A stretch of 62,956 nt of DNA, counting the filler. It is 4 parts of 4 records of this genome, joined end to end, with 100 filler letters (N's around TTAATTAATTAA, not from the genome) between each part and the next. Parts side by side here need not be neighbours in the genome. Positions count along the whole stretch, not along the records: positions 7,179 to 37,467 come from SRR31156797_3908; 3 more parts are not named here. One strand, written 5' to 3'. The stretch's first letter is position 1. Each line of letters starts with the position of its first letter. A model generated the notes under the pieces. It made no database searches. It was not told where the DNA came from and worked only from the letters and a program-made list of their open reading frames with translations. The translations under genes were made by a program, and so were the position numbers. Shown here piece by piece: positions 19,326 through 24,861 of the stretch.

Positions 19326-20129
19326 TTAGCCTTCGTTTAGTAGCTCTTTTAGTACTACTAATACACCGTTGTCGTTGTTACTTGGCGCGCTAAAGCGTGC
19401 GTATTTTTTAACGCCCTCGTGAGCATTTTCTACTGCATATGAGTAATAACTCTCTTGGAGCATTTCTACATCGTTAAAGTAGTCACCAAAACTCATGGTT
19501 TGCTCATAGCTAAAGCCCAACTTGTTTTGTAAATGCTTCATTGCCGCACCTTTTGATGCAGTAGGATGCATCACATCTAGCCAAATTTTGGCACTCACGA
19601 CCACTTTCTGACTATCGCCGTAAGCGGGGTGTATGACAGGGTAGATGTGTTTTTCAGAACCATCGAAATGGCAGATCGCTACTTTTAGGAAGTCATCTTC
19701 AACCGTAAGCAGATCGTCAACTTCTGTGCAGCGATGGTAGTATTTATGAACTTCGCTACGAGCTTGATCATCCTTTGTTTCGATGTAGGCGGATTGTTTA
19801 CCACAGAGAACAATATGCGCACCGTCGATAGTTCTTGCAAGGCTCACTAAACCTTCAATAACCGAAGCCTCCAAAGGCTGGCTATAGAGTTCTTCTCCTT
19901 TGTACATAACCAAGGTACCGTTCTCTGCAATGAACATGATTTGATCTTTTACTGGCGTAAAGCTGTCTAAGAGGCTGTAATACTGACGCCCGGAAGCGGC
20001 TGCAAAGAGAATGTCACGCTCAACGAGCTTAGGGTGGATTTCAAAAAACTCTGGGTCAAACTTTCCATTTTCATTGAGGAAAGTCCCATCCATATCGGTA
20101 GCAATGAATTTTACGTTACGGTGTGACAT
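19326..20129 (-). CDS. Cof-type HAD-IIB phosphatase
   Basis: DMDGT, ASGR, ENG, SKG, FGDYFND. Confidence 0.92.
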   Translation of the reverse strand: MSHRNVKFIATDMDGTFLNENGKFDPEFFEIHPKLVERDILFAAASGRQYYSLLDSFTPVKDQIMFIAENGTLVMYKGEELYSQPLEASVIEGLVSLARTIDGAHIVLCGKQSAYIETKDDQARSEVHKYYHRCTEVDDLLTVEDDFLKVAICHFDGSEKHIYPVIHPAYGDSQKVVVSAKIWLDVMHPTASKGAAMKHLQNKLGFSYEQTMSFGDYFNDVEMLQESYYSYAVENAHEGVKKYARFSAPSNNDNGVLVVLKELLNEG

Positions 20130-20407
20130 ATTTGAATACTCTTTTACTTGTGAATGCGCTGGGTTACGTAGGAATAGCGTACCTTACAATGGATCGCGCT
20201 AAATGATAAGTGCGGTGTTGAACAGGTCGCTGGTTTCCTAACAATAAAATAGGTCAAACAGCGGATAGTATAAAAATAGTCGTACATTTTACATACAATG
20301 AACATGATTCTAAATTGGATCCGATAAGCTGCCTTAGATGGATTGATGTAACAGCAATCCGTTTATTTTTTAAAAGACCCTGAAGTGAAATAAGGTAAAA
20401 GTGGAAA

Positions 20408-21100
20408 GTGTTGGCTGTGACAATAAAGAATAGATTAAAGCAAGCGTTACTCACCGTTGCAGTTGTTGCTTTTGGTTTGCCTGTTGTTTTGGTTTTCATT
20501 TTGAAATTTGTCAATCCACCATTCTGGGGATGGAAAGTGTCACGAACGCTATTTCCTCCTCAAGGATATCCAGAATATTCACTGCATAAGTGGGTAGCGT
20601 TAGACGATGCTTCCCCGTTATTACCACTGGCAATTATGGCTTCTGAGGATCAACAATTTCCAAATCACTGGGGCGTAGATTTAAATGCGCTTATCTCTGT
20701 CGTAAAAGAGAGCGGTGAAGATGGGCCAAAACGCGGTGCCAGTACCATCACACAGCAAACGGCCAAAAATGTATTTCTATTTCCTAGTCATACCTACGTG
20801 CGCAAAGCTTATGAATTGTATCTGACTCTGCTAATAGAAATGATGTGGAGCAAAGAGCGGATCATGGAAATGTATCTCAATGTGGTTGAGTTTGGCCCGG
20901 GGATATATGGCGTTCAAGCGGCGAGCCACCATTATTTTGGCGTCTCTGCTAGTAACCTGACTCAATATCAAGCCGCGCAACTGGCGGTTGTACTCCCAAA
21001 TCCTTATAAGATCAGACCTGCACCGATGACGCGTTATGTTCAACAACGCGTGAACTGGGTGTTAAATCAAATGCGAAATTTAGGGTCGATGCCGTTCTAG
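20408..21100 (+). CDS. mtgA: Monofunctional peptidoglycan transglycosylase
   Basis: GT51 motifs SEDQQF, RGASTITQQTAKN, RKAYE, YLNVVEFG. Confidence 0.92.
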   Translation: MLAVTIKNRLKQALLTVAVVAFGLPVVLVFILKFVNPPFWGWKVSRTLFPPQGYPEYSLHKWVALDDASPLLPLAIMASEDQQFPNHWGVDLNALISVVKESGEDGPKRGASTITQQTAKNVFLFPSHTYVRKAYELYLTLLIEMMWSKERIMEMYLNVVEFGPGIYGVQAASHHYFGVSASNLTQYQAAQLAVVLPNPYKIRPAPMTRYVQQRVNWVLNQMRNLGSMPF

Positions 21101-21657: not shown

Positions 21658-21688
21658 AAAACTAAACAGCTCCCCATTTTGGGAGCTG
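21658..21688 (-). terminator. Terminator of the decarboxylase gene
   Basis: CAGCTCCC/GGGAGCTG stem followed by TTTAGTTT on the minus strand. Confidence 0.75.
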
Positions 21689-21710
21689 CGGTCGTAAAAG
21701 TTGATTCGAT

Positions 21711-22910
21711 TTAACCAATCATACGTTCACTGTTTGTTTCACGCTCGTTAATAACAACGGTCTGTGCACGCTTGAAGAAATTAAAGTCTGTTGCGGTAGC
21801 GCTTGTGTATGCACCCATCATTCGGCCAATAACCAAGTCACCATTATTGAGCTTTGGCAACATGATGTTTTCTGCAATCACGTCAATGCTGTCACAAGTG
21901 GGGCCTGACAAAACGCTTGGCACGTATTCGCCTTCCGTTTTTAATGTCAGAAGCGGGTATTGTGCATCATCAAACATCAGACCACTGAATGAACCATAAA
22001 TACCATCGTCAAGGTAATACCAAATTTGCCCTTCGCGTTCCGCTTGTCCCATTACTGATGCAACGCTTGTTACAGCCTGTGCAACGATGAAACGACCGGG
22101 TTCAGCAATCACTTGCACTGTTTCAGGCAACTCGTTTAATGCTTCGTTAATCGGTACACAAAACTGGTCAATGGGCATCACTGTTTTGGTGTAAGTCACA
22201 GGGAAGCCACCACCGATATCTAGTGTGCTTAGTGCTGGTAAACCACGTTCAACAACTTCTGCCATCACTTGGTTGCAAGTACGAATCGCGTCGACATATT
22301 TTTGTGGGTTCATAGTTTGTGAACCTACGTGGAATGACAAGCCTTTTATACGGATGTTCCATTCCTTTGCCGTTTCAATAATTGCCAATGCTTGTTCTGA
22401 GCTACAACCGAACTTCTTAGACAAGTCTGCAAATGCTTCAGAGTTACGGAAGCTTAGACGAACCAAAAGTTCAACTTCTTCTCTGTATGGCTTGAACTTT
22501 TCGAGTTCGTTTAGGTTATCAACAACGAACACGTTACAGCCATACGCTAGCGCTTCACGAATATCGCGATCGCGTTTAATTGGGTGCGTGTGGATCGTGC
22601 GGTCAGCAGGTACACCTTGCTCAGCCACTAACTCAACTTCACCTGTTGTTGCAAGGTCAAAGCTTGCGCCTTCTTCCAAGAGTGTTTTTACGACTGTTGG
22701 ATGAGGGAGTGGTTTCAATGCGAAGTGCAAAGTAACGTTTGGTAACGCATGGCTTAACGCTCTGTATTGTGAACGAATAACATCGCAATCAAGCATTAGC
22801 AACGGTGCGCCAAATTGCTCAACCGACGTTTCGATAAGATCAATGGTCTCATTAGATAGAGCTTGAGTAGAGAAAGATTGAAAATCCAATACAGATGCTG
22901 ATTTAGCCAT
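21711..22910 (-). CDS. Fold-type III PLP-dependent ornithine/lysine decarboxylase
   Basis: HFALKP (PLP lysine), SKKFG, FHVGSQ, LDIGGGF, AEPGR, GPTCDSID, GAYT; GGAGG at 22916-22920. Confidence 0.93.
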   Translation of the reverse strand: MAKSASVLDFQSFSTQALSNETIDLIETSVEQFGAPLLMLDCDVIRSQYRALSHALPNVTLHFALKPLPHPTVVKTLLEEGASFDLATTGEVELVAEQGVPADRTIHTHPIKRDRDIREALAYGCNVFVVDNLNELEKFKPYREEVELLVRLSFRNSEAFADLSKKFGCSSEQALAIIETAKEWNIRIKGLSFHVGSQTMNPQKYVDAIRTCNQVMAEVVERGLPALSTLDIGGGFPVTYTKTVMPIDQFCVPINEALNELPETVQVIAEPGRFIVAQAVTSVASVMGQAEREGQIWYYLDDGIYGSFSGLMFDDAQYPLLTLKTEGEYVPSVLSGPTCDSIDVIAENIMLPKLNNGDLVIGRMMGAYTSATATDFNFFKRAQTVVINERETNSERMIG

Positions 22911-23080
22911 GCAAACCTCCAACAGTTTTGTAGACACTTTTCATATGCGTTGTGATGAAAAGTGGAGCGTCAATAATAGCGGGGTAACCGCCGTCAAAGT
23001 CACTCTTGGATAGTTGCTCTATCGCCTTGCCACAAAACTGCTGTGATGTACTCGGATTGGCTATCATCAAGAAGCAGCGC
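22911..23080 (-). ncRNA. Structured 5' leader (riboswitch-like candidate) of the decarboxylase
   Basis: Hand-folded four-way junction with a 14-bp closing stem touching the SD, plus an alternative 5' helix. Confidence 0.6.
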
Positions 23081-23081
23081 G

Positions 23082-23110
23082 ATATTAAGGGCATCACTTT
23101 TCTGACGCAA
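23082..23110 (-). promoter_or_regulatory. Sigma70 promoter of the decarboxylase
   Basis: TTGCGT-17 nt-TAATAT followed by the GC-rich discriminator CGCGC. Confidence 0.65.
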
Positions 23111-23214
23111 TAAAAAATACGCCAAAGAAAGCAAAAGGTTTTTGTCGATAAGACAAGCGTTGTTTGTCGTGTTTATCTAATTGATTTTACGTAACTTGTT
23201 TCGTTTGATACGTA

Positions 23215-23252
23215 TTGTTTAAGCCTTTAATACAAGTTAAAGGCTTAAACAA
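23215..23252 (-). terminator. Hairpin after the GST gene
   Basis: 16-bp perfect stem TTGTTTAAGCCTTTAA/TTAAAGGCTTAAACAA. Confidence 0.7.
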
Positions 23253-23257
23253 TGAGC

Positions 23258-23905
23258 TTAAATCGACTCTCCAGCTTCATCTTCGATGACAATGTCATTC
23301 TCTAAGCTTGCCTCGGCAAGCCATTTTTTCATTGCTGGGCTATTTAGTACTTTATCTGAATAGGTTTTTGCTTTTTCTGAAAGGGGGATGCCATAGGTTT
23401 GCATACGTAGTACTACGGGAGCGTACATAGCGTCCGCTATAGACCAATCGCCAAACAACCAGCTATCAGGGTATTGTTCCATTTGCTCGGACCAAAGCGC
23501 GTCGATCCGAGTAATATCTTTTAAAGCGGCGTCACTGAGTTCTACTTTTCTCTCTGCGCGGCAGTTCATTGGCATTTCATTGCGCAGTGCGACGAAGCCG
23601 GAATGCATTTCACACGCGATTGCTCTGGCCTTAGCTCGTTCAGCTTGCTGTGTTGGCCAGGCGCTCCCATCGAGAACGGTTTCATTGACGTACTCGAGTA
23701 TTGCCAGTGAATCCCAAACTGTGACACTGTCACTAACTAGGGTCGGTACTTTTGCTGTAGGAGTAATGTCTTGGAGCGTTTTATAGAACTCCTCCGTGAA
23801 CAGTTTAATTTTTACCACTTCAACATCGATATCATGCTGTGCAAAGATAAGCCACGCACGCAAAGACCACGTAGAGTAGTTCTGGTTGCCAATAAACAGT
23901 TTCAT
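23258..23905 (-). CDS. Glutathione S-transferase family protein
   Basis: NYSTWSLRAWL, KVPTL, WDSLAILEY, EMHSGF, SIADAMYAPV. Confidence 0.92.
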   Translation of the reverse strand: MKLFIGNQNYSTWSLRAWLIFAQHDIDVEVVKIKLFTEEFYKTLQDITPTAKVPTLVSDSVTVWDSLAILEYVNETVLDGSAWPTQQAERAKARAIACEMHSGFVALRNEMPMNCRAERKVELSDAALKDITRIDALWSEQMEQYPDSWLFGDWSIADAMYAPVVLRMQTYGIPLSEKAKTYSDKVLNSPAMKKWLAEASLENDIVIEDEAGESI

Positions 23906-24027
23906 TCAAACTTCCTTGATTGTTAGAGTAATATCGGAACGCTTAATTTAAGGGATTGTTTTATCGTCGACTAACGGATAGTTTTGATAGAACCTATAAA
24001 CAAAAACGATGGATAGTTCAGCTTAGT

Positions 24028-24861
24028 ATGGATATTGATGCTTTAAAAAGTTTTCTGGCGTTTGTCGATACGGGAAGTTTTACCCGAGCAGCAAAGCAGA
24101 TTAATCGAACACAGTCTGCATTTAGTGCGCAGATGCGTAAGCTGGAAGATGAACTCAATACTGGTTTATTTGAAAAAGATGGCCGTAATCTCGTGTTGAG
24201 TGAAGCAGGCTTGGCATTGAGATCTCACGCTGAAGAATTGGTGGGGTTACATAATAAAGCGGTTAAACAAGTCAGTCGATATCAGGATAAACGACCGCTG
24301 CGACTGGGCTGCCCTGAAGACTATAACGATTCAATATTACCACAGCTGATTGCTGAATTAATTCAGCAACAACCTACTTGCTCAATTCAAGTTTATAGTC
24401 AGCCAAGCGTGACGCTTCGAGAGTGGTTAGACGAAGATAAAATTGATGCGGCCATTTTAACACGCTCTCCAGATTCAGAAGAGGGGCATTGGTTGGCTCA
24501 TGATCAGGGGGTTTGGATAAAGCAAAAGGATTATGAGATTGATAAAACTCAACCGCTGCCACTTGCTCTTTTCCAACAAGATTGTAAATATCACGCGGCA
24601 GCCATTGACGGGCTAAGCAAAAAAGGGATTTCGTATCAACTACTGGCATGCTGCAACACGGCTTCCGCACAGCGAGCGATCGTTCGCCAGGGCTTAGCCA
24701 TTGGAGCGATGGGTAGACTCAGTGTCTCAAATGATCTCGAGGTGATCGCTGACTTTCCACCGTTGCCTGCGGTTGATATTGTATTAGTCACCAGTATTAA
24801 TCCTCATCCTTTGTTAGCCCAAATAGACTTTAAAACCGACCGTTTTTCTATCCTTAGCTGA
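24028..24861 (+). CDS. LysR-family regulator (divergent from GST)
   Basis: GSFTRAAKQINRTQSAFSAQMRKLE HTH. Confidence 0.92.
   Translation: MDIDALKSFLAFVDTGSFTRAAKQINRTQSAFSAQMRKLEDELNTGLFEKDGRNLVLSEAGLALRSHAEELVGLHNKAVKQVSRYQDKRPLRLGCPEDYNDSILPQLIAELIQQQPTCSIQVYSQPSVTLREWLDEDKIDAAILTRSPDSEEGHWLAHDQGVWIKQKDYEIDKTQPLPLALFQQDCKYHAAAIDGLSKKGISYQLLACCNTASAQRAIVRQGLAIGAMGRLSVSNDLEVIADFPPLPAVDIVLVTSINPHPLLAQIDFKTDRFSILS

Follow-up and report, generated by a model that had tools for sequence, protein, structure and literature searches.

A conserved structured leader RNA before a lysine/ornithine decarboxylase gene of Vibrio and related bacteria: a candidate riboswitch-type regulator

In the DNA analysed here (a stretch of 62,956 nucleotides (nt), hereafter the window) a leader of about 165 nt was read on the minus strand between a promoter and the ATG of a decarboxylase gene. 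The locus raises the question whether this leader controls the gene and, if so, which of its possible structures matters. An earlier note made from the sequence alone had measured the same leader, had called the gene an ornithine/lysine decarboxylase and had proposed a riboswitch-like four-way junction closed by a helix of 14 base pairs (bp). The gene call is borne out. The protein of 399 residues contains the Pfam domains PF02784 and PF00278 and matches the PDB entry 2plj_A, 'lysine/ornithine decarboxylase', over residues 1-399 (E 1.2e-222); judged by sequence, the gene is an alanine-racemase-fold lysine/ornithine decarboxylase (L/ODC). Comparison with related loci showed that the leader is a real, conserved, structured RNA, which probably switches L/ODC production on and off. 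Its sensor-like core (23074-23003) lies further 5' than the note had placed the conserved element and uses a helix that the note did not contain. This helix is called P1 below, and the closing helix of the note is called the 14-bp helix. The features concerned are:

22935-23081, minus strand: entire leader RNA motif (P1, J1, H1, J2, P3, P4), match of covariance model R1
23061-23074, minus strand: 5' strand of P1, C-U-(U bulge)-C-U-U-G-(AU bulge)-G-A-U-A-G
23047-23060, minus strand: J1, 5' strand of the internal loop, nearly invariant in alignment A2 (CCAAUCCGAGUACA)
23030-23046, minus strand: H1 hairpin, stem 23046-23042 with 23034-23030, loop 23041-23035
23014-23029, minus strand: J2, 3' strand of the internal loop, nearly invariant (CAAGGCGAUAGAGCAA); includes the 5' arm of the note's hairpin P2
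23003-23013, minus strand: 3' strand of P1, CUAUC-CAAGAG, whose final GAG forms the first three bases of the outer P3 stem
22965-23005, minus strand: P3 domain, outer stem 23005-23001 with 22969-22965, inner stem 22992-22988 with 22982-22978
22935-22964, minus strand: P4 hairpin, 22964-22955 with 22944-22935
23105-23110, minus strand: -35-like hexamer TTGCGT, read directly, position conserved
23082-23087, minus strand: -10-like hexamer TAATAT, 17-nt spacer to TTGCGT
22908-22934, minus strand: spacer and translation initiation region, with the strand 22933-22920, the Shine-Dalgarno sequence GGAGG (22920-22916) and the ATG (22910-22908)
21711-22910, minus strand: L/ODC gene

Conservation of the leader and its link to one gene

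One genome per species was scanned. This gave 165 stretches encoding a relative. The analysis continued with the best 80, drawn from Vibrio, Photobacterium, Bacterioplanes, Pseudoalteromonas, Psychromonas, Colwellia, Thalassotalea, Psychrosphaera and other genera. With the 311 bases upstream of the start codon as the query, blastn found a match in all 80 loci. The part common to them was not the entire four-way junction but the stretch that starts right after the -10 hexamer. Two core blocks (28 and about 31 bases) had a mean identity of 98.1% to the window, compared with 71.6% for the coding sequence, and they were better conserved than the coding sequence in 79/79 loci.

The motif is single-copy per genome and occurs only before one subclade of L/ODC. 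A 19-base core pattern was present as one exact copy per genome in 5/5 genomes, and in a sample of 401 genomes drawn evenly from the class it was found in two, one of which is the reference genome itself. The second (L087, one mismatch) is a chance match with neither an R1 match nor a decarboxylase nearby; a further near-match with two mismatches (L086) was likewise set aside as chance, no decarboxylase lying next to it. An exact 20-mer spanning J1 retrieved 54 metagenome stretches, 49 of which carry L/ODC directly downstream on the same strand; the remaining five are too short to show the downstream gene.

The covariance model R1 was applied to 100 sources, selected so that no two were identical in the leader region; 99 of them matched, with one match each. 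The match in the window (22935-23081, 165.8 bits, E 1.7e-36) was the sole one there. Five of 151 genomes sampled from the order matched, all with L/ODC downstream, and L/ODC was the gene downstream of the motif in the 80 genome loci and in 4/4 new genome matches. Homologues of L/ODC at E <= 1e-80 were found in 12/151 genomes (a sample of the order drawn in the same way, the listed handles coinciding). The five genomes whose L/ODC is 68-84% identical to that of the window are the five carrying the motif. In the seven genomes with homologues of 53-59% identity the motif was not found even with filters off (best E 0.47).

The promoter TTGCGT-N17-TAATAT (23110-23082) suggested by the note is present, and its position is kept. 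The pattern TTGNNN-N16-18-TANNNT, ending 14-18 nt before the first conserved block, occurs in 85/87 distinct orthologous upstream regions, and in 79 of these 85 the distance from the end of TANNNT to the conserved GATAG is exactly 16 nt. Because TTGCGT has only three of six consensus matches, the site is absent from the list of a consensus promoter scan. We infer a transcription start at about 23075, just before P1. Contigs of a seawater RNA library that are identical to the window cover 22830-23031 and thus cross the start codon, and RNA-library contigs from three related organisms in three further studies span 22930-23147 continuously with the coding sequence. These contigs, in which DNA admixture is possible, are compatible with a long leader. 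The main start codon is ATG in almost all loci, and the distance from P4 to the Shine-Dalgarno sequence and AUG is about 15-25 nt in most sequences. In one Bacterioplanes genome (L029:1159-1295) about 200 additional nt separate the motif from the start codon.

Helices of the leader and their covariation

P1 closes a large internal loop (J1, J2) that is capped by H1; the P3 domain comes next, and P4 adjoins it directly. The RNA begins at or beside the inferred 5' end of the transcript. Alignment A2 comprises 78 distinct core sequences, in which 99.1% of the P1 cells were paired, with two-sided changes at two pairs; on 99 sequences the value was 99.6%. P1 and H1 together were paired to 98.6%, against 95.2% in shuffled alignments; none of 500 shuffles reached the observed value, and slid controls did not exceed 44%. 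Two lineages show compensatory changes in P1: a U-A pair has become A-U in L039/L122, and another has become C-G in the Pseudoalteromonas rubra group. The two bulges of P1 are the most variable positions of its block.

H1 was paired to 98.8%, and its pair types (CG/UA, AU/GC, UG/UA) covary. The length of the H1 segment (stem and loop) ranges from 10 to 59 nt across 81 distinct cores. In the P. rubra group (L071, L074, L076, L077, L078; about 1205-1410 in L071) it is 58-59 nt instead of 10-18 nt, due to an insertion in the loop.

About 30 unpaired nucleotides are nearly invariant across families. The variable positions of J2 (C/U, G/A/U and one indel) are clustered. An additional helix within the internal loop is possible, formed by AUCC of J1 with GG..AU of J2 and with the variable bases bulged out. 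It suits the pattern of variation; all partners are invariant, so it is not claimed. A mutual-information scan for extra pseudoknot pairs gave only the known helices and clade-level correlations.

P3 and P4, both described in the earlier note, proved to be conserved and covarying. In the 99 sequences the inner P3 stem was paired to 90.6% with two-sided changes at 5/5 pairs, and P4 to 86.1% with two-sided changes at 10/10 pairs. The outer P3 stem, counted in full, was paired to 97.1%, and its changes are mostly one-sided. P3 is reduced to a simple 7-bp hairpin in L039, L122 and L140.

The consensus consists of five helices in three domains. On the R1-fitted alignment of 99 sequences, P1, H1, P3 and P4 together were paired to 94.0%, compared with 82.9% after shuffling, and two-sided changes were seen at 20/33 pairs of the entire structure. 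The covariation score was 0.317 versus 0.143 for shuffled alignments, a value that 0/500 shuffles reached, and slid controls were paired to 33-46%. As the alignment leans to the model structure and the sequences are related, these figures are strong support and not probabilities. Orthologue conservation, the R1 matches and covariation thus bear out the note's proposal of a conserved, structured and gene-specific leader RNA.

P1 and P3 share bases: GAG (23005-23003) belongs both to the 3' strand of P1 and to the outer P3 stem. In L039, L122 and L140 the base equivalent to 23004 is U instead of A, and both bases that it pairs with, one in the 5' strand of P1 and one in the 3' arm of P3, are A instead of U. 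Leaders of the P. rubra group have another helix, longer than P3, in place of the P3 domain; it again overlaps the 3' strand of P1 by three bases. These changes are single events, yet they are as two mutually exclusive functional pairings would predict, and in sequence the overlap looks like a switch.

The helices listed in the note (the 14-bp helix, P2, P3, P4 and an upstream helix) can all be found on the minus strand where it placed them. The minimum-energy fold of 22900-23082 reproduces its four-way junction (-56.1 kcal/mol, z -3.06, 1/200 shuffles as good). In the orthologous leaders, the covariation that the note had proposed to look for was found for P3 and P4, and P2 is doubtful. The 14-bp helix (23043-23030/22933-22920) is specific to the lineage of the window, and a junction closed by it is not the conserved element. 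Its duplex energy is -19.3 kcal/mol in the window (z -5.7) and -14.4 in the closest relative, L001, whereas the median of its equivalents over 83 distinct leaders is -5.3 kcal/mol and -10 is reached in only 8/83. The 5' strand of the 14-bp helix forms the covarying local hairpin H1 in all taxa.

The competition between the upstream helix and the 14-bp helix, proposed in the note, was not upheld, since the outer part of the upstream helix is only 34-51% paired. Its inner half (TGATG/CATCA) is paired to 95%, with one-sided changes only and with 19 unpaired cells at the variable bulges, and it competes with the covarying H1. As a conserved pairing, the upstream helix together with P2 was rejected: 79.2% of its cells were paired versus 79.0% after shuffling, and 150/500 shuffles were as high. 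In P2 itself, changes of the 5' arm are uncompensated in 22/78 sequences (closing pair), and eight more have gaps. Hence the invariant CUAUC more probably pairs with the invariant 5' GAUAG, as in P1, than with the variable local copy. An A-U change in L072/L073 fits P2, so P2 may be an alternative pairing. The 14-bp helix may still be a lineage-specific off state in the organism of the window.

A proposed switch and its alternatives

We favor the interpretation, with a probability of roughly 55%, that the leader belongs to a hitherto undescribed family of structured cis-regulatory RNAs and acts as a riboswitch-type translational regulator with an effector-binding sensor domain. P1, J1, J2 and H1 would form this aptamer-like domain, and the likeliest effector would be a small molecule of the pathway to which the enzyme itself belongs. 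If nothing keeps the sensor fold in place, its strands would base-pair with the ribosome-binding region and so prevent initiation. For the window, this off state would consist of the 14-bp helix together with a pairing of UAGCCA (P1/J1 strand) with UGGCUA at the start codon. In Alteromonadales, UCCGAGU of J1 would pair with ACUCGGA at the Shine-Dalgarno sequence, and the first codons with the strand of P1. A sensor fold that is kept in place would leave the ribosome-binding region free, and the effector would thus turn translation on. The overlap of P1 and P3 may couple the two domains.

The effector itself is a guess: ornithine, lysine or a polyamine. Since the sensor fold is the apparent on state, the substrate (ornithine or lysine) fits better than the product. 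A narrower proposal is a new riboswitch class of marine gammaproteobacteria whose invariant internal loop binds ornithine, lysine, a diamine or a polyamine and directly gates L/ODC translation. We hold it tentatively, at somewhat short of even odds; it would be the first natural RNA sensor of this part of polyamine metabolism outside the spermidine class derived from SAM-I.

Structure predictions for 51 leaders are in line with such a switch. When P1 and H1 were enforced, the mean predicted unpaired probability of the Shine-Dalgarno sequence rose from 0.24 to 0.44; the rise exceeded 0.2 in 29/51 leaders, and a fall of more than 0.2 was seen in two. In the unconstrained ensembles the initiation region pairs with segments of P1, J1, H1 and J2 and never with P3. 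In Alteromonadales-type leaders UGAUGAUAGCCA in the P1 strand and UGGCUUUAUCA at the start codon are complementary, and the duplex of the 5' strand with the initiation region reaches z <= -2 in 15/18 of them. The second codon (22907-22905 in the window) is GCU in 56/67 loci that have alanine there, compared with 24% GCU at the other alanine codons of these genes. This bias would suit pairing at the start codon and could also have other causes. A U-rich tract after P4 was found in 23/97 sequences only, the window not being among them; as this tract is rare and the Shine-Dalgarno sequence follows closely after P4, translation is the likelier target. The translational control suggested by the note is therefore plausible, from the predicted Shine-Dalgarno exposure, the pairings of the initiation region and the rare U-rich tracts. 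In L039, L122 and L140 a small hairpin, CCUU-loop-AAGG, encloses the Shine-Dalgarno sequence.

The leader shows what is usually taken to nominate riboswitch candidates: near-invariant junction strands between covarying helices, a 5' leader position and a consistent association with a single, tightly linked gene.

Several points weigh against this interpretation. P1 is almost invariant, and its support consists of the two compensatory events and the pattern of variable bulges, while the change in L072/L073 that suits the A-U pair of P2 disrupts one pair of P1. The kinship of the sequences causes the shuffle controls to overstate significance. The duplex that is strong in Alteromonadales-type leaders reaches z <= -2 in only 5/47 Vibrio-like leaders (mean z -0.68); the off state differs between lineages and is not evident in some. 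The nearest-neighbour model does not predict the sensor fold; enforcing it costs about 11.5 kcal/mol on average relative to the free minimum-energy fold. The proposal relies on tertiary structure, the effector or folding during transcription. The on logic would be unusual should the effector be the polyamine product. Finally, the transcription start rests on inference from the promoter position, and the RNA-library contigs, which may include DNA, reveal no start.

It is conceivable, if unlikely, that a protein instead binds the conserved fold, either an RNA-binding regulator or the decarboxylase system itself, and represses or activates translation in the manner of ribosomal-protein leaders. 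The anatomy expected is the same, the long invariant single strands J1 and J2 would suit a protein, and the energy of the secondary structure alone does not favor the fold. However, with upstream neighbours identified for the window alone, no conserved neighbour gene could supply the protein: a same-strand frame of at least 90 residues that begins <=400 nt downstream is present in 26/80 loci only and varies in length, and the 64-residue frame at this place in the window has no relatives. The conservation of the core also exceeds, to our knowledge, what is usual for protein-binding leaders. If the effector were a protein, the element would still account for L/ODC regulation in these bacteria.

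Premature transcription termination, or entry of Rho or an RNase, with P4 or extra hairpins serving as terminators, is improbable as the general mode of action. A U run does follow P4 or an extra hairpin in some lineages, namely L064, L069, L070, L072 and the Colwellia/Thalassotalea type with an extra stem and UUUU. However, even a lax definition of the U-rich tract yields only the minority given above, which excludes the window; the Shine-Dalgarno sequence is close to P4 in most sequences, and the predicted alternative pairings involve the initiation region. In L061, L063, L065, L066, L068 and their metagenome relatives, an extra 7-bp hairpin followed by UUUU lies between P4 and the Shine-Dalgarno sequence and resembles a terminator. 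This Colwellia/Thalassotalea-type platform may combine control of termination and of translation.

Slightly less probable again is that the leader senses bulk polycations or physical conditions (total polyamines, Mg2+, temperature, salt) through the stability of its compact fold and has no specific pocket, comparable to an RNA thermometer or to polyamine-stimulated translation. The polyamine product is a polycation, and polycations stabilise RNA folds in general; the pair of competing global folds, far apart in predicted energy, would suit such a device. The nearly invariant unpaired nucleotides, about 30 in number, exceed what a stability device needs, and a polyamine-stabilised fold that frees the ribosome-binding site would amount to positive feedback, which is hard to square with homeostasis.

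That a SpeFL-type leader peptide or a DNA operator causes the conservation is very improbable. An ATG at 23067 opens a frame of 54 codons that ends just beyond the main start codon. This ATG lies in a variable bulge of P1 and is missing from 17/81 distinct cores, and the frames range from 9 to 100 codons, which rules out a conserved upstream reading frame. Lengths of the H1 segment fall into all three classes modulo 3 (35, 25 and 21), and more than 30 consecutive invariant bases show no three-base periodicity. GATAG-N5-CTATC is an inverted repeat of the kind bound by repressors, but its left half degenerates in several lineages, and at H1, P3 and P4 the changes compensate each other at the level of RNA.

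The four-way junction as a conserved aptamer that competes with the upstream helix is hardly credible: it is the minimum-energy fold of the leader in the window, and its closing helix is strong there and in L001, but most relatives lack this helix, H1 is formed by its 5' strand, and the upstream helix with P2 did no better than shuffles.

The riboswitch-type interpretation, if correct, would put this leader in control of the committed step towards putrescine or cadaverine in Vibrio, Photobacterium, Pseudoalteromonas, Colwellia and their relatives. The comparative model provides exact helices for mutation and a short list of ligands, which makes the question directly testable.

Locus and relation to known leader RNAs

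The gene appears to be transcribed alone. Two features flank it:

21666-21689, minus strand: terminator-like hairpin with T run, 3' of the decarboxylase gene
23258-23905, minus strand: GST-like gene, the upstream neighbour

The hairpin at 21689-21666 suggests a single-gene transcript. The 64-residue frame that overlaps it has no relative among the 80 loci, and no conserved partner gene was found there. Upstream, an AT-rich, near-perfect palindrome of about 18 bp (23212-23255) directly follows the GST-like gene and is probably its terminator hairpin; on both strands it matches microRNA precursor models of Rfam below threshold. With a hairpin after the gene, an unrelated frame overlapping that hairpin and an upstream gene that has a hairpin of its own, the decarboxylase looks like a single-gene unit with its own promoter.

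Upstream neighbours were identified for the window only. A LysR-family regulator (23956-24861, plus strand) is encoded divergently from the GST-like gene. Among its best NCBIfam similarities is the putrescine utilisation regulator PtrR, of which it is no member, since the score of 77 bits lies below the cut-off of 400. Beyond the decarboxylase lie genes for a monofunctional peptidoglycan transglycosylase (20408-21100, plus strand, TIGR02070 above cut-off) and a Cof-type HAD phosphatase (19326-20129, minus strand). These two (19326-21100) are ordinary neighbours and are not kept alongside the motif.

At gathering score, Rfam 15 gave no match in the whole window and none in 12 related loci. This agrees with the expectation of the earlier note and includes the families of the speF motif and of the lysine and SAM riboswitches. 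At E <= 10, 15 sub-threshold matches were obtained in 22700-23400, most of them on the terminator palindrome of the upstream gene and none to a riboswitch or an ornithine decarboxylase leader family. The text of a paper on 50 bacterial genomes contains neither ornithine, polyamine and putrescine nor Vibrio, Pseudoalteromonas and Colwellia. No description of this leader RNA was found in the literature, where an unnamed listing in the supplementary tables of discovery papers is possible.

The speF RNA motif, an Rfam family with an alphaproteobacterial host range, is likewise a structured leader before an ornithine decarboxylase gene. The leader described here differs in having no Rfam match and in its hosts, which are Vibrio, Photobacterium, Pseudoalteromonas, Psychromonas, Colwellia, Thalassotalea and Bacterioplanes. 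In enterobacteria the speF-potE operon is controlled by the conserved arrest peptide SpeFL and is switched on with the substrate ornithine. It thus resembles the present system as a leader-encoded sensor before an ornithine decarboxylase operon; unlike it, the leader here has no conserved frame, and the enzyme has a different fold. In its inferred working the leader resembles translational on-riboswitches such as the add adenine riboswitch of Vibrio vulnificus, in which the effector frees the ribosome-binding region. Here, too, 5' sensor strands are predicted to pair otherwise with the ribosome-binding region, although sequence and fold of the two RNAs are unrelated.

The odc1 motif (uORF-25-1), as described by Brewer et al. 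2021 (PMC8632094), is an alphaproteobacterial RNA made up of one extended hairpin whose loop forms a pseudoknot with the 5' end; it has two adjacent UUG start codons and a fixed upstream peptide of 11 residues. It is a candidate RNA before ornithine decarboxylase as well, and a helix-hidden ribosome-binding site with control of translation initiation has been proposed for it (PMC8632094). Compared with this account, the present leader has no conserved upstream frame, starts the gene with AUG, comprises several domains and gave no pseudoknot pairs in the mutual-information scan.

Convincing RNA sensors of polyamine metabolism are rare. In Salvail et al. 2023 (PMC10853860), earlier claims of polyamine riboswitches are judged unconvincing and the SAM-I-derived spermidine class is regarded as the only convincing one. 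The spermidine riboswitch, a SAM-I variant acting on transcription termination (PMC10853860), is, as proposed for the present leader, an RNA sensor for polyamine synthesis genes; it differs in its SAM-I fold, and the leader here matches no SAM family. The leader looks like a new, so far undescribed family within a known kind, that of structured cis-regulatory leaders, and is a riboswitch candidate among them.

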